A stretch of DNA of 64,000 nt from an uncultured Candidatus Saccharibacteria bacterium (GTDB taxonomy: Bacteria > Patescibacteriota > Saccharimonadia > JAGOAT01 > CAYZIP01), in assembly GCA_964478695.1 (NCBI GenBank), contig CAYZIP010000003.1:4143-68142 (forward strand), in the 5' to 3' direction. A program made the translations under genes and the position numbers. The notes under the pieces are model-generated. The model ran no database searches, was not told the DNA's origin, and worked only from the letters and a program-made list of their open reading frames with translations. Below are positions 34,833 to 57,062 of the stretch, piece after piece; the stretch's first letter is position 1; each line of letters starts with the position of its first letter.

Positions 34833-35179
34833 TGCTTTAACTGCTAGTCCTTTCTGTAATTTATTTGCTTATATTAAAGTCAATTTTTGAGATTAATTTT
34901 TTGAGATTATAAATTCAATCATAAAATTATATTATACTCTATAAAACTATCGAACTGTATTAAAAAAACTATCAAAACGCATTAAACTTAATAAGGATTA
35001 TCAAAGCAAAGGCCCACCAAAACTCTAGGATGGATGTAATATAAAATACTTATTTGGCTGCTTGGAGGCTATCATCTTTTTTTAAATGGGGTTTACTTTT
35101 AAACATGTTCATAGATAGCAAAAGAACTCCCACCTTTATCTGGCGAGAGCTCTTTGCGACGGGCGTTAAATAACATCAA

Positions 35180-35191
35180 TTTTGGTGCGGA
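35180..35191. repeat. A 12-nt TTTTGGTGCGGA copy of the tRNA-Leu(CAG) 3' end, a candidate attL of the 35.2-48.0 kb island.
   Basis: An identical 12-mer at 47963..47974 overlaps the tRNA-Leu 3' end. The flanks partly agree as well: caATTTTGGTGCGGA versus ccATTTTGGTGCGGA. Confidence 0.4.
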
Positions 35192-35618
35192 ACCCGCACA
35201 TAACTTTGAACTACTGAGTAGTATAGCTGATTGGCTATTTTCTAACAAAATTGCGGACGCCTTTCGGCTTCCTCAGCTTGATACAGAAAGCATCAGATTA
35301 CAGAGGTTACAGCCCAGCTACACCTACTAGCACTATATTTACTAGAGTAAGGTTTGAACCGTACCCAACAATCTAATTGTTAGGAAACAGTGGCAGTTGT
35401 TGGATTAGGACATATGCTTTAGGTCATAGCGATACTGCCCCCCCCTATGCTAATACCGCCCTAAACTGAGAACAATGTAAACGCACATACTACCTAAATA
35501 ATTACCGACATAAAAAAATGGTTTATTTTCCTTGTTGGTAACGGTAGATAATTACCGAGTTCAAGGTGCTTCCTCTCTTCAAATGGTTGCTAGTCCAATA
35601 CAAGGCTATAATTAAACT

Positions 35619-36299
35619 ATGATAAGAAACGACTTTAATCAGTACATCGAAAAGTATATAGAAGGCTACTTGTTTGCCGACCTTAAAACAATCCACGAAA
35701 AAGTAAGCAGAGACGGTAGCCACCAGCAGTCTCTTGGTAATTTAGCGTATCTTTTTACGATTGCTATGTGTTCGGCTATGGAGTTTTTGGGGTTATTGCT
35801 TCGAGATAAGGACGCAGTCAAGGACGGTAAGGTTGACGCCTCCAACGCCCTATCTCACTACATAAAATACTACCTAGAGCCCATTGACCCCAAGTATTCC
35901 ATACTGCGAGCTATAGGCTCTCAGTTAGTACGTAATGGCATATCACATACTTACGCCACAAAAGGAAACATAGCAATTACCCGTCAAGGCAAACGTGAGC
36001 AGACCCATTTTGTAAAATATGGTGCGGAAGGAGTGGTGGTGTTAAACCCTGATTATATTTACGAGGACTTCCTTAAGTCTTACGAGGTCGTTAAATCAAA
36101 ATTGGCAACAGATACAAATCTTCTTGCCCGAGTTGAGGAGCATTACAACTCAATCAAAGCTGTATACGTCAGTGAAGTAGCTAGCCTAAATACAGCGGAC
36201 ATTAACGGAATTGAGTGGAAAGATAAACTTAGTGGCATTGCAACGGACGACATTATCGACAGTATAGAAGTTAATGGCGACTTGGTCTTTGTGAGCTAA
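35619..36299 (+). CDS. Hypothetical protein, first gene of the island.
   Basis: A 226-aa ORF. The upstream leader carries two direct ATAATTACCGA repeats. Confidence 0.35.
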   Translation: MIRNDFNQYIEKYIEGYLFADLKTIHEKVSRDGSHQQSLGNLAYLFTIAMCSAMEFLGLLLRDKDAVKDGKVDASNALSHYIKYYLEPIDPKYSILRAIGSQLVRNGISHTYATKGNIAITRQGKREQTHFVKYGAEGVVVLNPDYIYEDFLKSYEVVKSKLATDTNLLARVEEHYNSIKAVYVSEVASLNTADINGIEWKDKLSGIATDDIIDSIEVNGDLVFVS

Positions 36300-36303
36300 A
36301 TAT

Positions 36304-37635
36304 CTAAATTGAAGTTTTTATAACTTCGCCGATGTACTTTTTGTTTAGCCAAAAGCATTTTTTAATTAGCTGAGTACCTTGCGGTGTTGGTAGGGTGTCC
36401 TTTGCGTTCTTGGCTTTAGGGCGAACGTGGGCAACATTGCTCTCAGTAGATTTTGGCAAGTCAGTAGCGTCTATGGCAACTCGTCGCTTAGTCTCCTCCC
36501 ATACACGGCGAGCCTCTTCGCGGTCGATAAACGGCATATTCCAATAGTTTACCTTAGCTAACCGTAGGTCGCCGTTCTCGTCCACTCGAAAAATAACTAG
36601 TAAGAACTTTTGCTCTATTTTGTTGAAAAAACTACTGTCCTCCCACTCCTCGTCTACTATATCGAGGTACTTAAAAGTAGGAAATGACATAGCCTCGGCT
36701 GGTAGCCAGTCTTTATTTACTCTGATAGTTTTTAGTTCAACACCAGCCTTATCAAGCTCTGGCACAGTTCTCTTTGTACCGCCTAGAATACGCATAGTCA
36801 GGCTTCGATAAAACCCTTTGTCGTTTTTACCGTGTTTATGGAAATCTAAGAGACTAGAAATCTCTTCAACAGTTTTACCGATGTAAGGCTTAAACTTGTT
36901 TTGGGTAGCGTCCTCGATTGTAACAGTAGCTGTTACGTCTAATACACCGACCTCTCCCGTATGACCCTCAATAATACGATTAACATAACTTGGCTTGAGC
37001 GAGAACGCCCTAGACTTTGCTGGTATATCAGAGTTCGGTTGTTGTCTTAGTTTTTCCTTCTCACCACCAGAACCTTTTCGACAAGCACCTAGATAGTAAG
37101 TGTCTCCCTCTGATAGTTCGTGAGCAAGTCCGTTCTCAATTTTCTTACGTATAGTTTCCCAGTCACGCTTTATAATCTCTAGGTCTTTCTCTGGAAACTC
37201 AAACAAAATCGGGTGCAATACAAATCGCCTATCAAAAATCGACAACTCTTTTTCGTACAGATAAAACAGCAACAGCATCAGACTACATTTTTCCATTAAC
37301 GACGAAGTATCCCACCTCTCGTTAACTAGGTTCATATAGTTAATCATTGTCAAAACAAGGCGTTCCTTTGCCTTGTAACTGCCGTCTGTTCTTTTTAGCA
37401 CTCCTGTAGTTTTTAGTTCTACTCCAGCGTCAGGAAAATCAGGAAGGTGCGTTGTATTGTCGGGCTGGTATCTGTAATAGTACCGTTCAACCATATTACC
37501 TAAGTCGCCCTTGTTGCTTATATTTTCGGCAACTCGGGACATATCCACTACTTCGGCGAGTGTTTTGCCAGAGAGACCACGAGCGTACTCTAATAGAGAC
37601 TGAGGAGAGCTTATATCATAAGTCGCTTGTGCCAT
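36304..37635 (-). CDS. Sau3AI/MutH-family type II restriction endonuclease with a two-domain architecture.
   Basis: LPDFPDAGVELKT at the N-terminus and a second degenerate copy, VPELDKAGVELKT, in the C-terminal half. This matches the Sau3AI duplication of the MutH fold. Confidence 0.65.
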   Translation of the reverse strand: MAQATYDISSPQSLLEYARGLSGKTLAEVVDMSRVAENISNKGDLGNMVERYYYRYQPDNTTHLPDFPDAGVELKTTGVLKRTDGSYKAKERLVLTMINYMNLVNERWDTSSLMEKCSLMLLLFYLYEKELSIFDRRFVLHPILFEFPEKDLEIIKRDWETIRKKIENGLAHELSEGDTYYLGACRKGSGGEKEKLRQQPNSDIPAKSRAFSLKPSYVNRIIEGHTGEVGVLDVTATVTIEDATQNKFKPYIGKTVEEISSLLDFHKHGKNDKGFYRSLTMRILGGTKRTVPELDKAGVELKTIRVNKDWLPAEAMSFPTFKYLDIVDEEWEDSSFFNKIEQKFLLVIFRVDENGDLRLAKVNYWNMPFIDREEARRVWEETKRRVAIDATDLPKSTESNVAHVRPKAKNAKDTLPTPQGTQLIKKCFWLNKKYIGEVIKTSI

Positions 37636-37709
37636 ATACTCAATTGTATCAAAAACATCGGTAAATGGGCTTGATCGAAAGCTATAAAATTGGTAAGATA
37701 GTTGTAAGT

Positions 37710-38963
37710 ATGGTAAAAAAAATCAAAGTCGTTGAGTTGTTTGCTGGTGTCGGGGGCTTTCGTATTGGTCTAGACAGAGCAAGTAACGACAAGTTTAAGT
37801 ATGAAACAGTTTGGGCTAATCAGTATGAGCCAGCAACCTCTCGTCAACACGCCTCAGAGGTGTATGTAGCACGTTTTGGTAAGAAGGGTTTTAGTGGTCG
37901 TGATATTGAAAAAGTTATAGAAGATGATTTCGATAGCATACCAGACCACGACTTACTCGTCGGTGGCTTTCCTTGTCAGGACTACTCAGTAGCAAGCACA
38001 CTTAAACACTCTCACGGTCTAATCGGTAAAAAGGGCGTATTATTCTGGTCAATCTACACTATTTTGCAACGCAAAGGCGATAAAGCACCTGACTACCTTT
38101 TTCTTGAAAATGTAGACCGCTTACTCAAGTCTCCAGCAAGTCAGCGTGGCAAGGACTTCGCTGTTATGCTCGCTTCGCTATCTGACCTTGGATATGCAAT
38201 TGAGTGGCGAGTTGTGAACTCTGCTGAGTATGGCTTTCCACAGAGGCGACGTAGAGTGTTCATTATTGGCTACAAGAAAGGCACTAAACTTTATGAGAAA
38301 GCTAAAAAAGCCGTTGCGAGCGAGTGGTTGACGAAAGACGGTGTACTAGCTGACGCCTTCCCCGTAGAGCCGACGCTATCAACTCACGAGGTTAAACTCG
38401 AAGGTACTTACGCTGACATTACGCAGAACTTCTCTGCTAATAAGCCAACTCTAAGCCCATTTGATAACTCAGGTTTAATGATAGACAGAGTGGTTATCAC
38501 GGGTAAGGTAAACCCAGTATACAGTGGCAAACATATGTCCCTAGGTGAAGTGCTTATTGACGAGAAAGATGTACCCGATGAGTTCTTTATACCCGAGGAC
38601 AAGCTACCTCAATGGACGTATTTAAAAGGTGCTAAAAAAGAGGAGCGTAAAACGGCAAGCGGACACGTTTATCATTATGCCGAAGGTGCTATGGTTTTTC
38701 CCGACGCATTAGATAAGCCGTCTAGAACGATTATCACAGGCGAGGGCGGTTCTGGAGCGTCTCGCTTTAAGCACGTAGTTAAAACACCGTCAGGTCGCTA
38801 TCGTAGGCTCGTACCACTTGAGTTAGAGCGACTTGATATGTTTCCCGACAATCACACCCAACTCGAAGGTGTTTCTGACGGCAAAAGGGCTTTCTTTATG
38901 GGTAATGCCCTTGTAGTTGGTGCTATCGAAAAGGTCGGGCACTCCCTCTCGAGAAAACGATAG
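37710..38963 (+). CDS. DNA cytosine-5 methyltransferase, a probable M.Sau3AI-like partner. The ORF opens at 37665.
   Basis: ELFAGVGG is motif I. GFPCQDYS is motif IV. ENV is motif VI. RRRVFIIG is motif VIII. It is divergent from the REase gene. Confidence 0.88.
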   Translation: MVKKIKVVELFAGVGGFRIGLDRASNDKFKYETVWANQYEPATSRQHASEVYVARFGKKGFSGRDIEKVIEDDFDSIPDHDLLVGGFPCQDYSVASTLKHSHGLIGKKGVLFWSIYTILQRKGDKAPDYLFLENVDRLLKSPASQRGKDFAVMLASLSDLGYAIEWRVVNSAEYGFPQRRRRVFIIGYKKGTKLYEKAKKAVASEWLTKDGVLADAFPVEPTLSTHEVKLEGTYADITQNFSANKPTLSPFDNSGLMIDRVVITGKVNPVYSGKHMSLGEVLIDEKDVPDEFFIPEDKLPQWTYLKGAKKEERKTASGHVYHYAEGAMVFPDALDKPSRTIITGEGGSGASRFKHVVKTPSGRYRRLVPLELERLDMFPDNHTQLEGVSDGKRAFFMGNALVVGAIEKVGHSLSRKR

Positions 38964-39026
38964 TATCCGAGCTCTTGTAACTGGGATATAATATGGTCAG
39001 ATACCGTTCTGGGCATTATTAAAATT

Positions 39027-41252
39027 ATGACAACACTAAAGAAAATCACTAAATTAAAAAATTTAGGCGTATACGCTGATTTTAGTTGGGGCTCTGATTT
39101 ACCTGAACTCAAGCAATACAATGTGGTGTACGGCTGGAACGGCACTGGTAAAACTACACTCTCAAAAATGCTGGGGGCTTTAAATACAGGTAGCCACACA
39201 GACTTCGCATCTCTCGAATACTCGGTGTTAGATAGTGATGGCAATACGTACACTCAAGGTTCTGAATTTACGACCCCTGTTAGAGTATTTAACTGTGAGT
39301 TCATAACTAAGAATGTAGACTTCGATGCACTAAGCTCAAAAACTATAACCGTAGTCTTAGGCGAAGAGAATAAAGAGGCACTTGAGGCTATTGAAGTTGA
39401 TGAAAAGAAATTAGCTGAGGTTATTTCGAACATCACGAAGAAAACAACCGCCAAGAGAACAAAAGAGAATACGCATAGCACGGCGTTTACCGATATAGCT
39501 CGAACTATAAGCCAAGGAACTCAAGGAGCGATAGTAAGAAACTACAATAAGACGAATGCTGAGGTTGCTTTTCGTACAATGAGTGGTAAAGAGTTACTCG
39601 ATGAGACTGAGTTGGCTAAAGTTTCTAAATCTGTGGCACAAGACACGATGCCAAAAATAACTGAGTTGTCCTTGGTAGGTGTAGATGAGATGCTAGCAGA
39701 TGCAATTACCGAAGCTAAGACACTTTTAGGTAAAACTGTCGAGGCAACGATTATAGCTAGGCTTAAAGATAACCAAGATATTTCAGAATGGGTTGAAGCT
39801 GGACTAGCATTACACGATAAGCACGCCAGTAAAAGCTGTGAATTTTGCGGACAAGCCTTAGGTACTGCTCGAATTACCGACCTAACCGCTCACTTCAATG
39901 AAGCCGATGCAAAACTAAAAGCTGATGTTGATACAGTCGTCGATACTTTGAGGCAAGTATATTCGAGCGTTGATAATCTGCAAGTATTAGACAAGGCGAA
40001 TGTTTATAAAGAATATCAAGATGTTTATACGACTAGCGGTGAGGATTTTTCTGAAAAGAAAAAGTTAGTACTTGATGCGATTAGAAAGTTTGAAGAGTTG
40101 GTTAATTCTAAAAAAGCTCACACGACCGAAGCCCTCCCTGTTGGTGAGGTACCTAGCCTTGAAGAGCTGAGTAAGTCTATAGCAACGCTCAATGGCATCA
40201 TTTCAGAGCACAACAATAAAACGGACGAGTTCGATGACCGTCGAAAAGCGGATAGCCAAAAGATTGAACGACACTATCTCAGTACCATATACGATTCAGT
40301 GCAGACACTCGAAGACAATATAAAAGTACTGAATGATGATTTAGAGCAGTTAAACGAAGACGAGAGCAACGGTAAGAAAGCACTTGAAACTAGAATTGCT
40401 GGTAATAGAGCAAAGATATCCTCTTCACATAAAGCCTGTGAAATGCTTTGTACTGATATTAAAAAGTTTTTAGGACACGGTGAAATTACCTTCAAAGTTA
40501 ATGCTGATGATACGGGTTACGACATTTTGCGAAATGGCAAACCAGCGAAAAGCCTTAGTGAAGGCGAGCGAACAGCTGTGGCATTCGTCTTCTTTATAAC
40601 GCACTTAAAGGAAGAAGGCTTCGACTCAAAATCTGGCATTATCGTCGTTGACGACCCCGTGTCCAGCCTTGACGCTAACTCGCAATTTCAAGCTTTTTCT
40701 TTTCTGAAGGAAGCCACCAAAGACGCTGGTCAATTGTTTCTTTTTACACATAATTTTGAATTTTTAAAACTCGTTTTATATTGGGTTGGTCGCAATAAAA
40801 CTAAACGTTCGTTGTTTATGGTCAATAATACTTTTTCAGTAGCTGATGGCTCCCGAACAGGTGCATCACTTATAAGACTTGACCCTTCTCTTGAGAAGTT
40901 TGAAAGTGAATATCATTATCTTTTTAATCTTGTCTATGGCTATGGTAACGGCGATGGCACTATAGCAAGTGCCTACACGATGCCAAATGTAGCCCGAAAA
41001 CTATTGGATAGTTTTCTAATGTTTAGGGTTCCGAAAAATGTCGAAACTTACGCACGCCTACAAGAACTTGATTTTGACGAAGAGAAGAAAACGGCAATAT
41101 ACAAGTTTACTAACGACCAATCTCATATAACTGGTGCTGGGTTTGACCCCTCGCTTGTCCCAGAAGCTCAAAAGTGCCTTAAATATCTTCTTGAGTTAAT
41201 GGAAGCGACCTTCCCCGAACACTATAAGTACCTAGTTGAAGCGGTATCATAA
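39027..41252 (+). CDS. RloC/PrrC-like Rad50-type ABC ATPase with a coiled coil and a CxxC zinc hook, plus a C-terminal domain of about 190 aa. It is a putative anticodon-nuclease or abortive-infection protein.
   Basis: Walker A GWNGTGKTT. A long K/E-rich coiled coil containing SCEFCGQ. ABC signature LSEGER. Walker B/D-loop IIVVDDPVSSLD. H-loop FLFTHN. Confidence 0.5.
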   Translation: MTTLKKITKLKNLGVYADFSWGSDLPELKQYNVVYGWNGTGKTTLSKMLGALNTGSHTDFASLEYSVLDSDGNTYTQGSEFTTPVRVFNCEFITKNVDFDALSSKTITVVLGEENKEALEAIEVDEKKLAEVISNITKKTTAKRTKENTHSTAFTDIARTISQGTQGAIVRNYNKTNAEVAFRTMSGKELLDETELAKVSKSVAQDTMPKITELSLVGVDEMLADAITEAKTLLGKTVEATIIARLKDNQDISEWVEAGLALHDKHASKSCEFCGQALGTARITDLTAHFNEADAKLKADVDTVVDTLRQVYSSVDNLQVLDKANVYKEYQDVYTTSGEDFSEKKKLVLDAIRKFEELVNSKKAHTTEALPVGEVPSLEELSKSIATLNGIISEHNNKTDEFDDRRKADSQKIERHYLSTIYDSVQTLEDNIKVLNDDLEQLNEDESNGKKALETRIAGNRAKISSSHKACEMLCTDIKKFLGHGEITFKVNADDTGYDILRNGKPAKSLSEGERTAVAFVFFITHLKEEGFDSKSGIIVVDDPVSSLDANSQFQAFSFLKEATKDAGQLFLFTHNFEFLKLVLYWVGRNKTKRSLFMVNNTFSVADGSRTGASLIRLDPSLEKFESEYHYLFNLVYGYGNGDGTIASAYTMPNVARKLLDSFLMFRVPKNVETYARLQELDFDEEKKTAIYKFTNDQSHITGAGFDPSLVPEAQKCLKYLLELMEATFPEHYKYLVEAVS

Positions 41253-41740
41253 TGACAGACAACCGAAAACACTGGCTCAACGAGGATGGCTTGGAAATGA
41301 TAGAGCCAGACCCGAGGTGGGACAACCCAGACTATGAGCCTGTCGAACAACCACGCCCCGATGACATTGTTTATAGACTAAACTACGATAGCGACCTACG
41401 TTATCTCAAGCTTAATACTTTTGTCGTCCAGACGTTCCAATTTGAGAGCCACGCTGACAGAGTATTCGGCGAGCTGTTCAAGCAAGAGGGAGACGTAAAA
41501 GCAATCACTGTTCACAGCCCCGCCAAAGCCGATGTAATCGTCAATAATATCGCTATGCCAATAAAACTACGTAACGCTATGTTCACGACTGGTAGTAAGG
41601 GCACTCGGTTGCAAGTGCACACCGTTATCACTAGAGAGCGAGCCAAAAAGTTTGGTGTTAGCGATAAAGAGGTACGAACATATATCGACAAATGCCGAGA
41701 TACACACTACAAGCTACGAGATACCAATAAACGTAAATAA
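41252..41740 (+). CDS. Hypothetical protein, translationally coupled (ATGA) to the RloC-like ATPase.
   Basis: A 162-aa ORF with no motif I recognise. Confidence 0.35.
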   Translation: MTDNRKHWLNEDGLEMIEPDPRWDNPDYEPVEQPRPDDIVYRLNYDSDLRYLKLNTFVVQTFQFESHADRVFGELFKQEGDVKAITVHSPAKADVIVNNIAMPIKLRNAMFTTGSKGTRLQVHTVITRERAKKFGVSDKEVRTYIDKCRDTHYKLRDTNKRK

Positions 41741-41965
41741 ACCACCCCGTTTCTGCGACAGCCTCGCAGTGTTTTGACACGATGGGCGTATGGAAACGCT
41801 AACCGCAGAAAAACTGGAAAGCCCTGCCGACGTACTGGTAGAGTTTTTGGACGAGTTAGCAAAGATTGAAGCAACACCTGAAAAGATTGAGCGAAATAGT
41901 ACGACGATGACCGCTCCTGACGGAACTGTTATTACATACTAAGCATCGACTGCGGTAAAATAAGG

Positions 41966-43780
41966 TTGATGGAGAATGAAAACCAAGAGCTGGATGTAAC
42001 AAAATTACGCTACGTCCTATACGCCAGAAAATCTACCGAAGACGAAGGTAGTCAAGTTAACTCTATCGACGACCAGATACGTATTTGCCTAGAGTATGCC
42101 AACAATCACGGACTACACATCGTAAAGGTTATCAAAGAAGAAAAATCTGCCAAGAAGTACGGCAATCGCCCCCAGTTCACGGAGATGCTTAAGGGTTTCC
42201 CGATACAATACGACGGTTTGCTAGCATATCACCCTGACCGAGTAGCTCGTAATATGCGTGATGCTGGCATAATTATCGACCTACTAAACCCCGAGAAAGC
42301 TCAGATTAAAAGTATGGCGTTTCCGACTGTGCAGTATGCAAATGACAGTAGCGGAAGGCTTACTCTAGCCGTGCTCTTTTCACTTGCAACGCAATTTTCT
42401 GAACATCTAAGCGAGGTTGTGAGGCGTGGCGTAAAAACTAAGCTCAATAAGGGTATATCGTCGGGTGCTCCAAAATGGGGTTACGAACGTAATGAGATTA
42501 GCGACTTTTATGAGCCTGACGCTAACTTCCAATACGTACAGCGAGCGTGGATGATGCGAGCCGAGGGTGAACGTATTGCTGATATTGTAAAGTACCTCAA
42601 TAGCCACGACGTGAAGCGTATCACCAAGATTACGAGAACCAATAAGAAGCAACGCACTATCAGACCAAGCCAAACGAGTATCACTAAAATGTTTGGCGAT
42701 AGTTTCTTCTACGGATTGCTTATACAAAAGGGTCAGGAGGTAGATTTACGCAAAGTTACTACCAGTTTCACGCCAATGATTGACGAGGAAACTTACGACC
42801 GAGTACAAGCAGTTTCCTACAGACGCTCTAGGCTCAAGCCGAAGTCTATAAAAGAGGGCATCTTCTATCCTTTTAGAAGTATGGTGTTTTGCGGTGTTTG
42901 CCACAGTGATACGCCAATGCGAGTGGGTAAAAACAAGAGCGGTGGTAGTGGTCACGTGCTGTCGTACCGTTGCGATAATCCAAACTGTAAGAGAACTGTT
43001 AAGAGTGTTCGAGCTAAGTACATACTTGACGGGCTCTATGATGCCCTGAAGACCCTCCAGCTCACCGACAAGGAGTACGAAACCTATAGCAAGAGACTAG
43101 ACGAGCTTACAGACGATAAAATTGACGAGCTACAGTCCGAACGACGAAGCCTCAATGGTGTTAAAAATGTAAAAACCAAAGAACGAGATGACCTCTCTCG
43201 TAAGTTCCGTGATATGACCGATAAGCACCCTTCGTATGCCGTCACCGAAACTGACATCACAGTACTTCACAATGAAATTATCGACATCGAGACGAGAGTA
43301 GCCGAAATTACCTCAAAACTAAGGAACACAGATACTATCAAGCTCACGAAGGAAGAGTTTTTGAACTTGGCAAAAACAGCGTACGACAAGATGAGAGCTG
43401 GAACTCCACTTGAAAAGGACATACTTGCACGAAAAATGCTTTTGAACCTATCCCTAAATGACGAAAGAGCTCCTTCCTTTATCTGGAAAGAGCCCTTTGC
43501 CACGGTGTTTGCTAACACCCAATCTTCTTTTGGTGCAATTTTACACTTTTGCGCGAACCGAATTCCAGCGCAGCTGCGAGTGAGTGAGCCGCGCCGCCTG
43601 TGCGGGCAAGCCCGCACGCGCCCCACCAGCCGCCCCCTTACCTTATTTTTTGAGATTTCCCCCGCCGAATTTCTTTTTTTATCTGAAAAGGGGTTGGCTG
43701 GTGGTTCGCCTACTGCAAGCAGTAGAGGCGGCACGGCTTTAGTCGGCATAGCCGACGCGCTACGCGCATCACTCCTGTAA
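41966..43780 (+). CDS. Large serine recombinase 1. The true C-terminus is probably near 43530 and the ORF reads on into the repeat.
   Basis: YVLYARKSTEDEGSQ contains the catalytic Ser. LAYHPDRVARN. A recombinase domain, a CxxC...C zinc ribbon and a coiled coil. The last 80 aa translate repeat DNA. Confidence 0.8.
   Translation: MMENENQELDVTKLRYVLYARKSTEDEGSQVNSIDDQIRICLEYANNHGLHIVKVIKEEKSAKKYGNRPQFTEMLKGFPIQYDGLLAYHPDRVARNMRDAGIIIDLLNPEKAQIKSMAFPTVQYANDSSGRLTLAVLFSLATQFSEHLSEVVRRGVKTKLNKGISSGAPKWGYERNEISDFYEPDANFQYVQRAWMMRAEGERIADIVKYLNSHDVKRITKITRTNKKQRTIRPSQTSITKMFGDSFFYGLLIQKGQEVDLRKVTTSFTPMIDEETYDRVQAVSYRRSRLKPKSIKEGIFYPFRSMVFCGVCHSDTPMRVGKNKSGGSGHVLSYRCDNPNCKRTVKSVRAKYILDGLYDALKTLQLTDKEYETYSKRLDELTDDKIDELQSERRSLNGVKNVKTKERDDLSRKFRDMTDKHPSYAVTETDITVLHNEIIDIETRVAEITSKLRNTDTIKLTKEEFLNLAKTAYDKMRAGTPLEKDILARKMLLNLSLNDERAPSFIWKEPFATVFANTQSSFGAILHFCANRIPAQLRVSEPRRLCGQARTRPTSRPLTLFFEISPAEFLFLSEKGLAGGSPTASSRGGTALVGIADALRASLL
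43745..43767. repeat. GC-rich palindromic motif GGCATAGCCGACGCGCTACGCGC, containing GTCGGC-ATA-GCCGAC. This is copy 1 of 3; the others are at 45579..45600 and 46228..46249, the last being a half site.
   Basis: Seen three times at module boundaries next to the recombinase genes. Confidence 0.6.
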
Positions 43781-43916
43781 ACATAGTTATTTTTCGCCAA
43801 ACCATTGACTTTCTACGCAAAGTGTGCTATTATGAAATAAATAAGCTTGCATTGCAAGCGCAATTCTCTTCGCAATAACATAATTAACTAAAACACAGAA
43901 AAGGAATAATCTATCT

Positions 43917-44654
43917 ATGGATATCCTCTATCTTGCGACATTTCTTGTCGCGCTTATATCAAGCATTTTAAGCGGCATCGCTGGCGGTGGTGGCGGATTC
44001 GTCATGTCGCCGTACTGGCTAATTTCGGGCATGACACCTGCGCAGGGTGCAGCAACTGGTGCATTTATGGCAACAGGCGTGTCTATTAGCTCGGTTGCAG
44101 CGTTTCGCAAGTCCGACCACTTCCCCAAAAACAGAAAGCTGCTGTATATTTTGTCGGTGACGACACTGATTGGCTCAATTCTCGGAGCTATCATTGTGCC
44201 GAAAATTGATATTCAAGCATTCAAATATATGCTGGCAATTATTACCATTGCGGCTCTGCCGCTTTTGTTTATCAAACCAAATATCAAACATCGCTTGAGT
44301 AAGCACGGCAACATTGGCTTGCTGTTCGCGATAGCACTCCTTATCGTCGGCTCAATCATCACCAGTAGTGCGTTTTCAATCTTATTCGCACTCACACTCA
44401 TGGCATTTTTCAGTATGTCAGTACTACAGATGACTGCTCTGCGCCGATTGGTTGGCGTGGTGCAGTCGGTAGTTTTGTTTGTTGCATTTGCGGTGCAAGG
44501 CTATCTTGTCTGGCAACATGCTCTCGCTGGGTTTATTGGCGGTAGTATCGGGAGTTATATCGGCACGAAGTATGCTATTAAGAAAGGTGAAACTTTCGCC
44601 AAGTATGCACTGGCGATTATGTCACTTATCGGTGCGGTTGCGCTGTTAGTGTGA
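43917..44654 (+). CDS. TauE/SafE (TSUP) family anion exporter-like membrane protein.
   Basis: ILSGIAGGGGGFVMSPYWL and repeated 4-TM halves. The gene is GC-rich. Confidence 0.7.
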   Translation: MDILYLATFLVALISSILSGIAGGGGGFVMSPYWLISGMTPAQGAATGAFMATGVSISSVAAFRKSDHFPKNRKLLYILSVTTLIGSILGAIIVPKIDIQAFKYMLAIITIAALPLLFIKPNIKHRLSKHGNIGLLFAIALLIVGSIITSSAFSILFALTLMAFFSMSVLQMTALRRLVGVVQSVVLFVAFAVQGYLVWQHALAGFIGGSIGSYIGTKYAIKKGETFAKYALAIMSLIGAVALLV

Positions 44655-44666
44655 GATAATAAGATT

Positions 44667-45245
44667 ATGAAAAATATACAATCTTCCGAACTAAACGAAA
44701 GTTACGCACCTATGCAGGAAGTTGAGCCAACGCCAATTCACACCATAGAACCTATGCAACTCGATGATACAGACGGGGTTCATACTCTCTTGCGAGCAGG
44801 ACACCTGGCAACATATGTCAATGAAGAGCTGGGTGTTACTGCTGAAAAGGTAGACCAGCGTTTCTCTGGCTCAACACCCGAAGAGCGTCGAGAGAGAAAT
44901 AAAAAACGTATTGCCGACCCTAATAATCAAGCTTGGGTTGCAAAAGATGACAAGCAGCAAGTTATCGGATTTGTTGCTCCTCGCATCGAGGAGGACGGCA
45001 CACATCGTCTAGGCGCATTATATGTAACCAAAGAATGGCAAGGTAAAGGCATAGCCCATGAACTCATGGCTAAGGCGATTGATTGGCTTGATGGCGAACA
45101 CTATGATATTAAGCTCGGTGTCGTTACGTACAATGAACGCGCAAAAGCGTTTTACCGTAAGTATGGTTTCGAGGAAGTCCCAGATTCTGAAACACTTTTT
45201 GACGATCTCATACCAGAAGTATTTATGGTGCGAAAAGCGCAGTAG
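44667..45245 (+). CDS. GNAT-family N-acetyltransferase.
   Basis: QGKGIAHELMAKAIDW...AFYRKYGFEEV is an acetyl-CoA binding motif. Confidence 0.7.
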   Translation: MKNIQSSELNESYAPMQEVEPTPIHTIEPMQLDDTDGVHTLLRAGHLATYVNEELGVTAEKVDQRFSGSTPEERRERNKKRIADPNNQAWVAKDDKQQVIGFVAPRIEEDGTHRLGALYVTKEWQGKGIAHELMAKAIDWLDGEHYDIKLGVVTYNERAKAFYRKYGFEEVPDSETLFDDLIPEVFMVRKAQ

Positions 45246-45434
45246 GTCGCTAAAGCGACAGCGCACCCACCAGCCAACCCCTTTTCAGATAAAAAAAGAA
45301 ATTCGGCGGGGGAAATCTCAAAAAATAAGGTAAGGGGGCGGCTGGTGGGGCGCGTGCGGGCTTGCCCGCACAGGCGGCGCGGCTCACTCACTCGCAGCTG
45401 CGCTGGAATTCGGTTCGCGCAAAAGTGTAAAATT

Positions 45435-45539
45435 GCACCAAAATGGCAGAATTACGGAAATTGCCGCCCATTCGGGCGGTTTTTTCTCTGGCGGCGCGCA
45501 GCGCCAACCAGCTGTTTTTCTGGGGGGAATGAGATTTGG
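45435..45539. repeat. IR-B. It is an inverted copy of the 105 nt downstream of tRNA-Leu(CAG), including the last 6 nt of the tRNA and its terminator. Its partner is at 47867..47971, with 2 mismatches.
   Basis: I compared the reverse complement by eye. Confidence 0.8.
45463..45487 (+). terminator. Rho-independent terminator GCCGCCC-ATTC-GGGCGGT followed by TTTTTT. It lies inside IR-B, and a second copy at about 47920-47945 on the minus strand terminates tRNA-Leu.
   Basis: A GC stem followed by a T tract. Confidence 0.6.
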
Positions 45540-45628
45540 AGCACCAGCAAGCTGGTGCACTTTTTTGTTTTTTCTGTCGGCATAGCCGACACGCTCCGCG
45601 TACTGCATATTAGAAAAAGTCTATTTCA

Positions 45629-46213
45629 TCAGAGTAAGTAAAACGTCAGATGAATAACATTTGCAATGTAGATATTTCCTGTATACCGTCGTAAGAACGC
45701 AAAACCAAAACCAGCAATCGCAATCAGTATGAACTGGGGGTCTGTGATGTCATTTAGGAAAAATACAGCGTGTCCGAGTAGAAATACTATGGCCGTGACG
45801 ATTGCCGCTTTTGTAGCGGTTATTGTTTTGGCAAGGCGCGTTTGAAGCAAGCCAAATGTTACATAATCTTGCCAAAATACAGTAATGACAATCATAGGAA
45901 TATATACCCATATATCAAGCGCGAGCGCGTAGTGCCACGGCAAAAATACGAGCAATGTAGCTGGCACAGCATAGAGCCATAATAGTCTTGATTTTGGCAA
46001 TGACTCGCGCCGATATTTCGGTAATAAGCGAAGCGCAACAGCTGTAACTACCAGAACCCATACAGTCGCAATTGCATAGCTTATGTTCACGTCTATAGGC
46101 AGTTGCAGCAGGCGTTCATTCATGAAAATGCCTTGCGTTACTGTCCATATTAAAAACCACAAAATTATAGATATAAAGATAGTTTTATAGAGCGTAAAAA
46201 GCTGATGTGTCAT
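45629..46213 (-). CDS. Polytopic membrane protein, possibly CPBP/Abi-like (FLLGHAVFF). ATG 46213 is the likelier start; the ORF extends to 46273 through the repeat motif.
   Basis: About 6 TM helices. FxxxH and a later H are present. Confidence 0.35.
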   Translation of the reverse strand: MTHQLFTLYKTIFISIILWFLIWTVTQGIFMNERLLQLPIDVNISYAIATVWVLVVTAVALRLLPKYRRESLPKSRLLWLYAVPATLLVFLPWHYALALDIWVYIPMIVITVFWQDYVTFGLLQTRLAKTITATKAAIVTAIVFLLGHAVFFLNDITDPQFILIAIAGFGFAFLRRYTGNIYIANVIHLTFYLL

Positions 46214-46377
46214 TGTTTTTATTATAACATAGCCGACACGCTCCACGCCGTGGTAAAATAGAAGTGGACACAATCTATTAGTAAAACGGCGATATTTTTG
46301 GCTTTAATAGCCGTCCCGTACAATGCAGTTTTACTGGATTGTGTCCAGCGGGGCGGCTATTTAAGTGGAGGGCAACT

Positions 46378-48012
46378 ATGATGGAACTACTGGTAAACAT
46401 AGAGCCGGTGTATCTCATCTATGTACGAAAAAGCACCGATGTCGAGGACAAGCAAATATTATCTGTCGCAGCGCAGATAATAGAGCTAAAAGAGTTTGCC
46501 AAGCGCATGGGCTTGCGTGTTGCGGGTGTCATCATAGAAAAACAAACCGCGAAAAAGCCAGGACGCCCGAAGTTTAACAAAATGCTGGAGCGTATAGAAA
46601 ACGGCGAGGCAAACGGCATTTTGGCATGGCTGCCCGACAGATTGTCGCGCAACAGCATAGATAGCGGGCGCGTTATTTATATGCTTGATGAAAATGTTAT
46701 CGCCGACCTGAAGTTCCCGCATTTTTGGTTTGAGAATACACCGCAAGGCAAATATATGCTGGCTAATGAGTTTAACAGTTCTAAACAGTATGTAGATAAT
46801 TTGTCGGTAAACACCAAGCGAGGGCTGCGCCAAAAGGTGCGCGAGGGGCATTGCCCGCGCCTTGCGCCTGTCGGGTATATCAATGATGTGCGGACGAAAA
46901 CGATATGGGTAGACAAACGGCTTGCGCCGATTGTTCGCCAAGCGTTTGAGCTATACGCAACTGACACAAAGACGCTGGACGATATTGCCGCCTTTTTGTA
47001 CGCCAATGGTATAAAAACGCGCGGGCGGCGCAGGGTTAAGGACGAGCCAAAATCTGCGGGCGGGCGGCAATGGCATGCGTCGCGCGTGAAACGAATGTTG
47101 CAAGATGTGTTTTATTACGGGCATTTTCGCTATGTGGACACGGTGCATGAGGGCAAGCATACGCCCATCATTGACAAACCACTCTTTGACAAGGTGCAGC
47201 GAGCACTTGCAGGGCGTGGACGCGCGCAAAAGCGCGCTACTGCCCCGCAGCCGCTTAATTTGCTGGTGCGGTGTGGGAATTGTGATTGTTTTGTAACTGG
47301 TGCGCACAAGATAAAGCGGCAGAAAAACGGCAATGTGCATGAATATACCTATTATCGGTGTACTCACAAGAAAAAGGCGGCGATGTGCCGCGAAAAGGAG
47401 GTACGCGAATATGTACTGGCTGGACAACTCGTCCCGATTTTGCAATCTTTTGCCTTGCCAAAAGATTGGCGCGACTATATGGCGTCAAGGCTGGAGCAAG
47501 ACAGAGCCGAGCTAGAGAATGAAAGCAAGGCGATGATTGACACGCTGCGTGGTGAATTGGACGCCATAAGCGCGAAACTCAAACGACTTTTTGATATGTA
47601 TTTGGACAGTGATATTGACCGCGAGGACTACAAAGACCGCCAAGCCGAGCTGATGAGCGAGAAAAAGTCGCTTGAGGGCAAAATCGAGCGCGTTCTGGCG
47701 AACGCGGGGTACTGGATTGAACCTATGCAGCAATGGTTAGAAACTGCCGTTTCTATCTGTACGATAGACGAAAAATCGGAGCATAGCGAGATTGCGCGGG
47801 CTTTTCGCCAAATTGAAGGATTGAACCTAAAAATGAAAAACGAAAAAGTCGTCGCGGAGCGCGACGCCAAATCTCATTCCCCCCAGAATAACAGCTGGCT
47901 GGCGCTGCGCGCCGCCAGAGAAAAAACCGCCCGAATGGGCGGCAATTTCCGTAATTCTGCCATTTTGGTGCGGATGAAAGGACTTGAACCTTCACAGGGT
48001 TACCCCCACTAG
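46378..48012 (+). CDS. Large serine recombinase 2. The ORF opens at 46339. The C-terminal roughly 50 aa translate IR-B' and tRNA DNA.
   Basis: LIYVRKSTDVEDKQ, AWLPDRLSRN, a zinc ribbon and a coiled coil. GGAGGG lies upstream of ATG 46378. Confidence 0.8.
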   Translation: MMELLVNIEPVYLIYVRKSTDVEDKQILSVAAQIIELKEFAKRMGLRVAGVIIEKQTAKKPGRPKFNKMLERIENGEANGILAWLPDRLSRNSIDSGRVIYMLDENVIADLKFPHFWFENTPQGKYMLANEFNSSKQYVDNLSVNTKRGLRQKVREGHCPRLAPVGYINDVRTKTIWVDKRLAPIVRQAFELYATDTKTLDDIAAFLYANGIKTRGRRRVKDEPKSAGGRQWHASRVKRMLQDVFYYGHFRYVDTVHEGKHTPIIDKPLFDKVQRALAGRGRAQKRATAPQPLNLLVRCGNCDCFVTGAHKIKRQKNGNVHEYTYYRCTHKKKAAMCREKEVREYVLAGQLVPILQSFALPKDWRDYMASRLEQDRAELENESKAMIDTLRGELDAISAKLKRLFDMYLDSDIDREDYKDRQAELMSEKKSLEGKIERVLANAGYWIEPMQQWLETAVSICTIDEKSEHSEIARAFRQIEGLNLKMKNEKVVAERDAKSHSPQNNSWLALRAAREKTARMGGNFRNSAILVRMKGLEPSQGYPH

Positions 48013-48051
48013 CACCTGAAGCTAGCGTGTCTACCATTCCACCACATCCGC
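47966..48051 (-). tRNA. tRNA-Leu (anticodon CAG), with a long variable arm.
   Basis: GCGGATGTGGTGGAATGGTAGACACGCTAGCTTCAGGTGCTAGTGGGGGTAACCCTGTGAAGGTTCAAGTCCTTTCATCCGCACCA. Confidence 0.85.
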
Positions 48052-54071: not shown

Positions 54072-54161
54072 GCGGATGTGGTGGAATGGTAGACACGCTA
54101 GCTTGAGGTGCTAGTGCTTTATTTTAAGAGCGTGAAGGTTCAACTCCTTTCATCCGCACCA
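54072..54161 (+). tRNA. tRNA-Leu (anticodon GAG).
   Basis: GCGGATGTGGTGGAATGGTAGACACGCTAGCTTGAGGTGCTAG...GAAGGTTCAACTCCTTTCATCCGCACCA. The 5' 33 nt are identical to the CAG isoacceptor. Confidence 0.85.
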
Positions 54162-54183
54162 AATCCATAGGGAGAATATATAG

Positions 54184-55305: not shown

Positions 55306-55381
55306 GGCGACTTAGCTCAGTTGGTAGAGCAGAGGCCTGAAGAGCCTTGTGTCGTTGGTTCGAATCCATCAGTCGCCACCA
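55306..55381 (+). tRNA. tRNA-Phe (anticodon GAA).
   Basis: GGCGACTTAGCTCAGTTGGTAGAGCAGAGGCCTGAAGAGCCTTGTGTCGTTGGTTCGAATCCATCAGTCGCCACCA. Confidence 0.85.
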
Positions 55382-57062
55382 TTTTATACATATGCGGGTG
55401 TAGCTCAGTTGATAGAGCGCTTCCTTGCCAAGGAAGAGGCCCCGAGTTTGAGTCTCGGTACCCGCACCATTCGCAACGTAGCGCCTGTAAAAGGGCGCTT
55501 TTTATCTGTTGTGGGCAGGTTTTAACCTTACCCAACTCGTTTCTAAAGCGTTTTGCGTTATTTTTAACTGGAATTAACCATTCATCTGGGGTAATAGTAA
55601 GTTTTCCGTCTAATAATACTGGGTTTTGACCGATTGCTAGCAGTATCTCTTTTTTGTCTGCAAACTCGCCATTTACGAACTTATTAGTTGCTCCTGTGAG
55701 TTTTAGGAACGTATCACTCATGAAGTCGTACCAGCTTTCAACTTTCTTTGCAGTATCAGCTTGCTTCTTATGAAGTTCTTTTAATTGACCTTTAAGCTTA
55801 CTGTTTTTAGAAACAAATGTTTCCTCATCTACAAGCCCACGAGTGGACATATCAAGTAAGCGGTCTAACTGGTTCTCAATATCTTGAATAGCTTTACTCT
55901 GCATTTCAATGGCATTATCACGCTCTGGCTTTTCTTCCTGTAGCATTTCGTTTAAAGCTTCCATGCTCCACTGATACAGTTGTGGCGATAGTTCGTATTC
56001 GTTTAGTAGCTTTTCGCATTGCTCATAAAGGTCATCTTCTTTTATCATCTTACGTTGACTACAGTTAATAGTGCTGCTCCTGCGAGTACAATGATAGTAA
56101 ACGTGCGTATTACTACCACCGTCTTTAAGCTTTCGCTCTTGGCTCTGTGCTGTAACCATACAGCCACACTCACCACAGCGTATAAGCCCTCTTAGAGCGA
56201 ACTGCCTACGTGTAGCGAACTTCTTAGCTGCCTTTGAGCCTAGAAGCGTCTGAATGCGGTCAAACTCCTCTTGAGTCATTAAAGGTGGGTAGTTTGCAGG
56301 ATACATTTTTTCAGGGTCATGTGGGTCTGGAACCCAGCCAGCGTACCTGACGTTATTAAACACTCTGTATAAAGAAGCTCTACCGAGTGGACCACCACCT
56401 CTCTTATTGTGCTTTAGCGTCCGATAGCCTTTTTCTTCATTTAACCACTTGAGTATAAGAGGAACACTATAGTTACCAGTCAACATCATATCTACGGCTT
56501 CTCTTAGTAGTGGAAAGCGCAACTCGTCTTTATATACTGTTTTCTTGATTCGGTCATTTAAGTAACCCTCTGGCGCACAGCCTGTTAATCCGCCATTCTT
56601 GCGCTTCTGCTCATTGCCACGCTTTACATCTTTGCTTAACTTGGCTGAAAAGTACTGTGATTGGCTCATAGTGAGCTGTAACATCATTATGCCTTCTGGG
56701 GAGTTATCAAAGGTGTAGTTAGCAAATGCTAGGTCTTTAATGATTCCACGTCTTATGCGATACGTAAGGGCTGCTGCGTCCTGTTCATTCCTGGACAGTC
56801 TGTCAGGGTGCCATGCCACTATTCCGTCAATCTCGCCTTTATCAAGCATTTCTATTATCTGCTTAAATACTGGTCGCTTGTCAGGCTCAAAAGCACTTTT
56901 GCTCTCGTCTAAGAACCTGACGATGTTTAATTTGGGGAAGCGTTCTTTGATTTTATTCTTTTGGGCTTCCTTTGATAGAACTTGTCGTTCTTCGTCTTCT
57001 GTAGATTTGCGTACATACGCAACGTATTTTAGGTTATTTAGTTTATTGTTTTCGTAATTCAT
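55317..57062 (-). CDS. Large serine recombinase 3. The C-terminal 60 aa or so are read-through across the terminator and across tRNA-Gly and tRNA-Phe on the opposite strand.
   Basis: YVAYVRKSTEDEERQ, VAWHPDRLSRN, a CGECGC zinc ribbon and a coiled coil. The tail ...DSNSGPLPWQGSALSTELHP... is a typical anti-tRNA translation. Confidence 0.75.
   Translation of the reverse strand: MNYENNKLNNLKYVAYVRKSTEDEERQVLSKEAQKNKIKERFPKLNIVRFLDESKSAFEPDKRPVFKQIIEMLDKGEIDGIVAWHPDRLSRNEQDAAALTYRIRRGIIKDLAFANYTFDNSPEGIMMLQLTMSQSQYFSAKLSKDVKRGNEQKRKNGGLTGCAPEGYLNDRIKKTVYKDELRFPLLREAVDMMLTGNYSVPLILKWLNEEKGYRTLKHNKRGGGPLGRASLYRVFNNVRYAGWVPDPHDPEKMYPANYPPLMTQEEFDRIQTLLGSKAAKKFATRRQFALRGLIRCGECGCMVTAQSQERKLKDGGSNTHVYYHCTRRSSTINCSQRKMIKEDDLYEQCEKLLNEYELSPQLYQWSMEALNEMLQEEKPERDNAIEMQSKAIQDIENQLDRLLDMSTRGLVDEETFVSKNSKLKGQLKELHKKQADTAKKVESWYDFMSDTFLKLTGATNKFVNGEFADKKEILLAIGQNPVLLDGKLTITPDEWLIPVKNNAKRFRNELGKVKTCPQQIKSALLQALRCEWCGYRDSNSGPLPWQGSALSTELHPHMYKMVATDGFEPTTQGSSGLCSTN
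55394..55469 (+). tRNA. tRNA-Gly (anticodon GCC).
   Basis: GCGGGTGTAGCTCAGTTGATAGAGCGCTTCCTTGCCAAGGAAGAGGCCCCGAGTTTGAGTCTCGGTACCCGCACCA. Confidence 0.9.
55479..55506 (+). terminator. Rho-independent terminator AGCGCCC-TGTAAAAG-GGGCGCT followed by TTTTAT, after the tRNA-Phe/tRNA-Gly pair.
   Basis: A GC stem followed by a T tract. Confidence 0.55.

Follow-up and report, generated by a model that had tools for sequence, protein, structure and literature searches.

Two tandem integrative elements with large serine recombinases at the 3′ end of a tRNA-Leu(CAG) gene in a Saccharibacteria-class host

How does a stretch of DNA that encodes two serine-family recombinases come to be seated at the very end of a tRNA gene, and did it arrive there as one element or as two? 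The locus that raises this question lies in a 64,000-nucleotide stretch (the window) of a contig from an uncultured Candidatus Saccharibacteria bacterium, where an insert of 12,783 bp occupies the 3′ end of an intact tRNA-Leu(CAG) gene (47966..48051, minus strand; ARAGORN and Rfam). We divide this insert into E1, of 8.3 kb and with the recombinase Rec1, and E2, of 4.4 kb and with the recombinase Rec2. Very probably, two unrelated integrative elements were inserted successively into the CCA end of this tRNA gene, in a Saccharibacteria-class host, through the mechanism proposed below, every statement on which is inferred from sequence. The host itself belongs to the Saccharibacteria/Patescibacteria and has a low GC content; proteins from Saccharibacteria and Patescibacteria share 62-64% identity with its UvrA, and its gene order resembles that of Saccharibacteria loci.

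Two elements at one tRNA gene

The insert is framed by direct repeats, which the first-pass annotation had described as 12 nt long. The 12-mer TTTTGGTGCGGA does occur in exact copies at 35180 and 47963, but the true repeat is 13 nt, ATTTTGGTGCGGA, at 35179-35191 and 47962-47974 (plus strand), with a spacing of 12,783 bp. Its left copy is attL of E1 and of the whole island, as placed by alignment with the empty site, while its right copy, defined by repeat comparison, reaches into the CACCA 3′ end of the tRNA, within which the crossover would lie. Allowing one mismatch, the 12-mer has 3 matches in the window against 0.27 expected. A third copy of the 9-nt core, TTTTGGTGC, stands at 43528-43536 (plus strand) and forms the E1/E2 junction (S1), being at once the remnant of E1 attR and the attL of E2; this copy, which had been located just 3′ of the first recombinase, is real but lies inside the Rec1 reading frame. 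As had also been claimed, the island is richer in G+C than the backbone, most of all from 43.5 to 48.0 kb, with a GC content of 0.476 in E2 (43537-47962), 0.427 in E1 (35192-43527) and 0.444 in the whole island, against 0.358 and 0.361 in the flanks. The third match of the 12-mer is the 3′ end of another gene in the window, tRNA-Leu(GAG) (54072-54161, plus strand), where positions 54153-54164 read ATTTGGTGCGGA, with one mismatch; this end is unoccupied and, oppositely oriented at a distance of 6 kb from the island, is a potential secondary attB.

The occupancy of the site can be read from public contigs of the same species whose flanking genes are 100% identical to those of the window. Four of them (L005, L064, L066 and L068) provide the empty site in related genomes that the first-pass annotation had proposed to look for: the left flank 35015-35191 joins the tRNA directly (...CATCAATTTTGGTGCGGATGAAAGG...), and the comparison shows that the insertion was precise and left the tRNA intact. 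Two others (L067 and L069) carry E2 alone, and in them the flank passes at the core directly into the left end of E2, AATTTTACACTTTTGCGCGA, E1 being absent; the E2-only sample also gives a contig with the E2 cargo. E1 adjoins the left flank both in the window and in L065, where E1 genes follow the flank. Moreover, in L071 and L070 a copy of E2 with 99.9% identity over 4,466 nt has another flank and adjoins another tRNA-Leu(CAG) gene. Because the site is found empty, with E2 only or bearing E1, and E2 is found beside another tRNA-Leu(CAG), the tandem consists of two mobile elements, E1 and E2, each separate from the other, and a recent transfer of E2 between hosts has taken place. These population data bear out the earlier proposal of attL, attR and two tandem elements, together with its placing of a recombinase beside the right-hand att site of each, both recombinases adjoining the tRNA-proximal att site.

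Since the outer 13-nt repeats enclose the entire region, the 12.8 kb could also be taken for a single composite island that moves as a unit, with an incidental core copy inside. This is highly improbable, however, given the E2-only state at the same site, the presence of E2 alone in another host, the direct contact of E1-type recombinases with tRNA-Leu in most homologs and the different GC of the two parts (0.427 vs 0.476). With two elements, the locus shows what characterises a genomic island at a tRNA gene, that is, precise insertion at the tRNA 3′ end, direct repeats and an empty site in conspecifics. The classical mark of the Islander definition, a tyrosine integrase, is missing, as both integrases belong to the serine family.

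The site also has a longer history. In the backbone flank, at 35096..35170 (plus strand), and likewise in the empty-site contigs, there is a scar of the 3′ end of an older Rec1-like recombinase (LLNMFIDSKRTPTFIWRELFATGVK and a stop), which has 76% nucleotide identity to 43439-43505 and, by tblastn, 12 of 23 identical residues (E=1e-7). As this 23-aa Rec1-like C-terminus is already present in the empty site, the site was used before E1 and E2, and an earlier element left it, or decayed in it, before they came.

Recombinases and their attachment sites

Both enzymes had been called serine recombinases, and Pfam places them among the large ones: the catalytic domain PF00239 (1e-21 in Rec1, 4e-15 in Rec2) is followed by PF07508 (7e-17 in Rec2; 2e-5 in Rec1, above its cut-off). 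The R-K-S-T catalytic motif is invariant in 25 Rec2 homologs, the catalytic domain matches PDB 3g13, and residues 236-426 of Rec2 match the C-terminal domain of the A118 integrase (E=1.8e-6). Rec1 and Rec2 are 28% identical to each other. An exact look-up of Rec2 in databases found no record; the tail of its open reading frame (ORF) depends on the junction.

The Rec1 frame (41966..43780, plus strand) crosses the core at 43528-43536, where its native part ends, and 43537-43780 are 84 foreign codons taken from the left arm of E2. At the far end of E1 stands an orphaned 3′ coding segment of rec1, 46 codons and a stop (35189..35330, plus strand): once the gene is joined to the E1 left end, as in the predicted circle, the Rec1 frame runs through 46 codons to the stop at 35328-35330. 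A tail of the same length, with the conserved pattern WLF.N..FR.PQ...Y.Y before the stop, closes the long homologs P0312 and P0323, in which the protein is kept and the DNA has diverged. The conserved tail and the frame that continues across the core point to an attP inside rec1, from which integration would detach a conserved 46-aa C-terminal segment and leave it at the other end of E1. The predicted isoforms of Rec1 have 604 aa as found, 528 aa beside the tRNA (ending in SSFGADERT and a stop) and 570 aa in the attP form. A tRNA-encoded end, G-A-x-E-R-T and a stop, occurs in 105 of 120 Rec1 homologs from databases, so the whole Rec1 lineage sits at tRNA-Leu-type ends.

The ORF of Rec2 (46375..48012, plus strand; the longest frame starts at 46339) reads through the core into the tRNA gene, which supplies its last 14 codons, and in the attP form its tail would be the ~15 aa encoded in the left (L) arm of E2. 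Most of 120 Rec2 homologs have tRNA-encoded tails, and in ~11 of these 120 an L-encoded tail (LV.FY..RT.F) follows the core. The L arm with the core (43528..43704, plus strand), which would hold the P′ half-site TTTTAC...CGAACC, is the first copy of an inverted repeat, I1, whose second copy, 45267-45443, is 100% complementary to it over 177 nt. A second inverted repeat, I2 (105 nt, 98%), pairs 45435-45539 with 47867-47971; the latter is the right (R) arm with the core, that is, S3 or E2 attR (plus strand), and it bears a minus-strand terminator (47943-47926) 23 nt past the tRNA 3′ end. I1 and I2 overlap by the 9-nt core, and their other two copies make up S2 (45267..45539, minus strand), an intact attP-type site that lies inverted between cargo and recombinase, with the reversed L arm (L_rc) at 45267-45443, the core at 45435-45443 and the reversed R arm (R_rc) at 45435-45539. 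In the junction alignment, S2 read on the minus strand (45539..45267) consists of the last 96 nt of rec2, the core and the E2 left arm. This internal inverted att copy is absent from the earlier, sequence-only account of the locus.

Across loci, S1, S2 and S3 have only TGGTG in common, which is complementary to the CACCA end of the tRNA. On the tRNA side, the GAAC of the T arm lies 15 nt beyond GGTG, whereas (T)CGAAC(C) lies 19 nt beyond it in every L arm and TTTGAAC 20 nt beyond it in E1-type left ends; in E1 this motif falls within the orphaned rec1 segment, which would double as the P′ half-site. The sites thus appear to be of the kind used by large serine recombinases, short, with a shared core of 5-13 nt around TGGTG and a P/B-type difference in spacing. 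With GAAC at +19/+20 in the element and at +15 in the tRNA, the element arm appears to mimic the tRNA T arm at P-type spacing, and the use of such universal tRNA features could explain how the family is retargeted among tRNAs. In the model for the A118/LI integrase, too, the zinc-ribbon motif lies 5 bp closer to the centre in attB than in attP (PMC3783163). The host-flank half-site carries no conserved motif, and new elements insert beside unrelated left arms, so that recognition seems to rest mainly on the tRNA half-site.

In the mechanism that we propose, attP would consist of the end of the element's own recombinase gene, the core and the element's other end, and attB of the host flank, the core and the acceptor and T arm of the tRNA; the recombinase would pair the two sites and exchange strands within TGGTG. 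The tRNA-side half-site would be read via the T-arm (T/C)TGAAC, of which the element has a copy at a greater distance from the core, by 4 bp in E2 and by 5 bp in E1. A new element would always land between the previous one and the tRNA, which makes E1 probably the first to arrive and E2 the second. Because attP would lie inside the recombinase ORF, integration would alter the C-terminus of the enzyme, Rec1 losing its 46-aa tail and Rec2 exchanging its ~15-aa tail for tRNA-encoded residues, a change that may bias the direction of the reaction. S2 would set both cargo and recombinase between inverted repeats, where homologous recombination would keep the arms identical and occasionally flip the cargo.

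Several points weigh against this account. The zinc-ribbon match of Rec2 lies just under the Pfam cut-off (PF13408, 24.2 bits against 25.3, with the invariant Cys residues present), and Rec1 has no PF13408 match. Recognition of attB looks one-sided, which is atypical of the serine integrases studied so far, and no recombination directionality factor (RDF) is identifiable in the elements. Neither recombination nor recombinase activity nor an attB restored in situ was observed, and the circular attP junction of the window's E1 or E2 was not recovered. The order of arrival is not provable either, because insertion of E1 into the attL of E2 would give the same sequence. Lastly, the orientation of E2-type elements is biased: of 16 loci that could be scored, 15 have the hairpin and promoter end of the cargo beside S1, and the recombinase faces the tRNA in every case, its segment being inverted in 0 of ~30 loci. 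When contigs of the homologs with L-type tails P0064, P0072, P0031, P0108 and P0312 were inspected for circles or inverted isomers, no terminal overlap appeared; L011 is a tandem array and the others end at repeats.

The inverted third site of E2

The layout of E2 is that of a family. Rec2 has thousands of homologs, the named ones from Saccharibacteria, and in 34 loci the 3′ end of the recombinase gene abuts or overlaps the convergent 3′ end of a tRNA gene (Leu 13, Gly 7, Glu 4, Thr 3, Arg 2, Lys 2, Gln 2, Met 1). Both inverted-repeat pairs abut at the core in 22 loci, the window included, and 4 more have a small gap; L007, L008 and L009 are among the loci with the S2-type layout. The R arm is nearly always 105 nt long, whereas the L arm ranges from 67 to 272 nt and the cargo, of variable content, from 0.8 to 5.5 kb. 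Two segments result: segment A, the cargo (TauE and GNAT genes) with its own promoter at 43805-43833, lies between the two L arms, and segment B, with an Rce1-like gene and rec2, between the two R arms. Segment B is of ~1.65 kb and holds the recombinase alone in 25 loci, so that the Rce1-like gene of the window is unusual among relatives. One intact family member, L045, has no inverted repeat at all. A scan of IMG/VR for Rec2 relatives found none, and hence no sign of a phage origin.

Within an element, the identity of the arms has a median of 100%, while between elements the medians are 66% (L) and 74% (R). Being identical within elements and diverged between them, the copies evolve in concert; this speaks for gene conversion or recombination that is still going on between the arms, and for a long retention of S2. 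The inverted repeats might instead be an artefact, in which the assembler mis-joined reads of a circular form, and it is true that short-read contigs of the family often break at the repeats, many at ~2 kb. Yet the same layout recurs in >20 independent assemblies from different assemblers, in the complete genome CP064995 and in contigs assembled with k=127 or k=141, which exceeds the 105-nt arm; these last two findings leave an assembly artefact with next to no probability.

Inversion of the cargo between L arms does happen. Two oral metagenomes hold the same cargo of the P0108 recombinase in opposite orientation, L012 3123-6088 being the reverse complement of L013 2003-4951 at 99.4%; the cargos of L029 and L035, 91.5% identical over 3,585 nt, are inverted relative to the recombinase, and so are those of L012 and L040. 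The E2 of the window, seen in one orientation, is bounded like an invertible segment, its inverted repeats (177 nt and 105 nt) having the core in common. A scan of metagenome contigs for an inverted recombinase segment gave 0 matches and was uninformative, as the positive control, the normal S2, also gave 0. Judging from these sequences, homologous recombination between the arms best explains both their identity and the occasional inversions, although it would leave the same sequence as an inversion catalysed by the recombinase.

What, then, is S2 for? Candidate roles are those of an accessory site, an insulator, a spare native 3′ end or half of a circle with two attP. S2 could also be the working site of a programmed switch, in which Rec2 would invert either the cargo, by S1 x S2, or rec2 itself, by S2 x S3; in this way, for instance, Rec2 could regain its element-encoded C-terminus or the cargo could phase-vary. 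In favour of such a switch, S2 is a complete R-core-L site, inverted and conserved across the family, cargo isomers with breakpoints in the arms exist, and in ~11 of 120 homologs Rec is followed by the L-encoded tail. We find the switch doubtful nevertheless, since the serine integrases studied do not recombine attP with attL or attR (PMC3783163), the cargo promoter lies within the invertible segment, so that inversion would not switch expression, and a crossover at the core would not homogenise the arms, which are identical; L011, one of the L-tail cases, is a tandem array of two related elements and not an inversion. Furthermore, the cargo has a strongly preferred orientation and no locus shows the recombinase segment inverted, so that S2 is not a freely flipping switch.

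A related idea starts from excision, which by S1 x S3 would necessarily yield a circle with two inverted attP in a 273-bp inverted repeat, like those of the yeast 2-micron plasmid or of chloroplast genomes; either copy would integrate, and flip-flop would keep the two identical. The identity of the arms within an element and the existence of cargo isomers would suit this idea. However, half of the insertions should then have Rec facing away from the tRNA, as 0 of ~30 do, the element has no replication gene and no circle was recovered, all of which makes it improbable.

A possible role for S2, to be taken as tentative, is accessory or regulatory and involves no crossover: a Rec2 dimer on S2 would aid or block the synapsis of attL and attR, or the duplicated ends would insulate transcription between cargo and recombinase. 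The conserved part of the element has no RDF-like gene, segment B containing only Rec in the 25 loci, two plus-strand terminators lie in S2, the length of the R arm is constant (105 nt) and S2 has been kept across deep divergence. On the other hand, this role is purely inferential, accessory sites have no precedent among large serine integrases, and L045 is intact without the inverted repeat. Homologous recombination stays our preferred explanation for the state of the arms. As for the family as a whole, one might speculate that Rec2 and its relatives form an undescribed class with three att sites (attL, internal inverted attP and attR), in which the third site and the change of C-terminus replace a directionality factor, and that Saccharibacteria serine recombinases, by reading universal features of tRNAs (CCA end and T arm), are naturally retargetable among them.

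The L arm of E2 also takes part in a conserved multi-stem, cloverleaf-like structured element (43586..43738, plus strand; ~155 nt), which straddles the end of the arm and extends ~35 nt beyond it, with a closing stem and three hairpins. RNAalifold over 15 loci predicts 37 pairs, 24 of them with compensatory changes, and the minimum free energy of the segment is -94.2 kcal/mol (z = -7.9). No Rfam family covers the structure, either at the gathering score or at E<=1, where only a chance match to mir-250 turned up. A partial inverted copy lies within 45267-45443; the structure is complete only beside S1, the inverted repeat reaching no further than the base of the third stem. Repeat and family comparison then reveal, at 43742..43833 (plus strand), the conserved hairpin GTCGGCATAGCCGAC, with the cargo promoter (TTGACT-17-TATTAT) downstream of it. 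Two direct copies of this 6-3-6 hairpin, at 43742-43756 and 45576-45590, each follow an arm (L and R_rc, respectively) at a distance of ~37 nt and precede a promoter region, the first that of the cargo and the second that of the recombinase segment; in relatives, GTCGGC...GCCGAC covaries to GGCGGC...GCCGCC. Facing the cargo operon are two terminator-like hairpins (45463..45558, plus strand), the first of which is an inverted copy of the terminator inside rec2. A minus-strand ORF across S2 (45384..45608; a 95-aa gene in L007) was considered as an RDF or regulator and rejected, 6 of 21 loci having no in-frame start.

Public contigs of the family offer some further observations. Many are only 1.6-2.5 kb long and end exactly in the inverted-repeat arms or the tRNA; as short-read assemblies fragment these elements systematically, they are easily overlooked in metagenome-assembled genomes. 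In L009 (CP064995), host flank and core are doubled, at 7970-8027 and 8152-8197, 182 bp apart, and the first copy runs into a 21-nt piece of the tRNA-Leu 3′ end, like a leftover attB beside the attL of the resident element. In L038 (from 11558) and L045 (from 11524), a Rec2-type R arm and core lead into CGGA(A/G)(T/C)TACAGAA...AAACTTTTTG, which resembles the left end of E1, without a tRNA; given E1-like left ends after Rec2-type R-core, mixed tandem arrays of recombinase lineages seem common. L038 also has a Rec1-like gene (32% identity) before a tRNA-Gly. Positions 1-58 of contig L015 are an Illumina Nextera adapter.

Known systems, cargo and a third recombinase

The first-pass annotation regarded large serine recombinases as unusual at tRNA genes, in agreement with a 2020 survey of integrative elements, to which tRNA targeting by this group was not known (PMC7192596); in Saccharibacteria, however, it is the rule for at least three recombinase lineages. 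The large serine integrases (A118/LI, phiC31, Bxb1, SPbeta SprA, TnpX, CcrAB) have the same resolvase catalytic and recombinase domains (their zinc ribbon is here a sub-cut-off match of Rec2 only), the same short att sites with a small shared core and the same position of the recombinase gene beside attP. The outward shift of the element-side outer motif by 4-5 bp relative to the host side is that of the LI integrase model (PMC3783163). Unlike them, the Saccharibacteria elements target the CCA/T-arm ends of at least 8 tRNA types, have a putative attP inside the recombinase ORF and no recognisable RDF, possess in the Rec2 family an internal inverted copy of attP, and are tiny (3-8 kb), without phage or conjugation genes and with none in IMG/VR. 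A small serine recombinase is used by the filamentous phage phiRSM, which takes a tRNA gene as attB according to that survey (Askora et al. 2011, cited in PMC7192596). That enzyme is resolvase-like and without the large C-terminal domains, whereas Rec1 and Rec2 are large, and its host and element type are unrelated.

The tRNA islands with tyrosine integrases (P4-like, Islander-type) share the insertion at the tRNA 3′ end, the tRNA-derived direct repeats, the integrase beside the tRNA, the tandem arrays at one tRNA and the defence or accessory cargo; the enzymes here differ in belonging to the serine family, and the overlap with the tRNA is ~5-13 nt (CACCA and a few bases), not 20-60 nt. The integrases of SSV1-type archaeal viruses are tyrosine recombinases whose gene is split by integration far inside the gene. 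Integrase partitioning of this sort is predicted for both of our elements, attP lying within the ORF and the missing 3′ part at the element's other end, as a 46-aa tail for Rec1 (46 codons, 35189-35330) and a ~15-aa tail in the L arm for Rec2. Unlike in SSV1, only a C-terminal tail would be removed, the enzymes are bacterial serine recombinases and the truncated protein probably stays functional.

In mycobacteriophages such as BPs, as Broussard et al. are said to have reported in 2013, attP crosses the repressor gene and immunity depends on integration, with integrases mostly of the tyrosine type. An attP in a coding sequence and a protein isoform tied to the integration state would be common to both, the isoform effect being putative here. 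With Flp/FRT of the 2-micron plasmid, Hin/Gin and the shufflons, E2 shares recombinase sites within long inverted repeats, two segments and an orientation that varies between isolates; unlike Flp/FRT and Hin/Gin, it has a biased orientation, attP-type sites and no replicon, and inversion by Rec is here a candidate.

Full-text searches of the literature on serine recombinases of Saccharibacteria, Patescibacteria and the Candidate Phyla Radiation, and on tRNA-targeting serine recombinases, yielded no description of these elements. What is known is that the enzymes belong to the large serine recombinase family and that the islands behave like ordinary tRNA-borne islands; what is new is the target class, the attP inside the recombinase ORF with its conserved detachable tail, the internal inverted attP with its concerted repeats, and the structured element. 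To our knowledge, hardly any mobile elements have been described from the Candidate Phyla Radiation, for which genetic tools are also scarce. The data offer pairs of recombinase and att site that would integrate at Saccharibacteria tRNA genes without damage to the tRNA, as well as a large natural family of serine integrases at tRNA 3′ ends whose specificity has shifted among at least 8 tRNA types while the arm geometry was kept. An attP in the recombinase gene would give integration-state-specific isoforms, making an RDF-free control of directionality directly testable, and two parts are new, the structured element of ~155 nt and the internal inverted attP, which is conserved. To this is added the recent transfer of one element, E2, between hosts.

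The cargo of E1 begins with a 226-aa ORF without Pfam or PADLOC match (35619..36299, plus strand). The restriction-modification system that had been annotated next stands, with a Type II restriction endonuclease with MutH/Sau3AI-like domains (36304..37635, minus strand; PF02976 4e-39, PADLOC REase_II 3e-81) and a C-5 cytosine DNA methyltransferase (37665..38963, plus strand; PF00145 5e-56, PADLOC MTase_II 2e-160). The label of RloC-like module does not hold for the AAA_13 ATPase that follows (39027..41252, plus strand; PF13166 3e-133), whose best match is the PADLOC candidate defence system PDC-S06 (6e-237) and whose PrrC/RloC likeness is weak (PrrC 4e-8). Its stop overlaps the start of a 162-aa ORF (41252..41740, plus strand), to which Pfam and PADLOC assign no function. 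In E2, the genes named earlier are all confirmed by Pfam: a TauE/SafE-family membrane transporter (43917..44654, plus strand; PF01925 7e-26) and a GNAT acetyltransferase (44667..45245, plus strand; PF00583 2e-18) in the cargo proper and, in the recombinase segment, an Rce1-like/CPBP membrane protease (45629..46273, minus strand; PF02517 9e-10).

Beyond the island, the window encodes a third large serine recombinase, a 581-aa ORF at 55317-57062 (minus strand), 27-31% identical to Rec1 and Rec2. No internal inverted repeats were found in its element, and a search for the far boundary turned up only a 9-mer repeat. The recombinase probably marks a third island that extends rightward to ~60 kb, with a GC content of 0.40 and genes on the minus strand. 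The frame of the recombinase runs across the 3′ end of tRNA-Gly(GCC) (55394-55469) and continues through tRNA-Phe (55306-55381).

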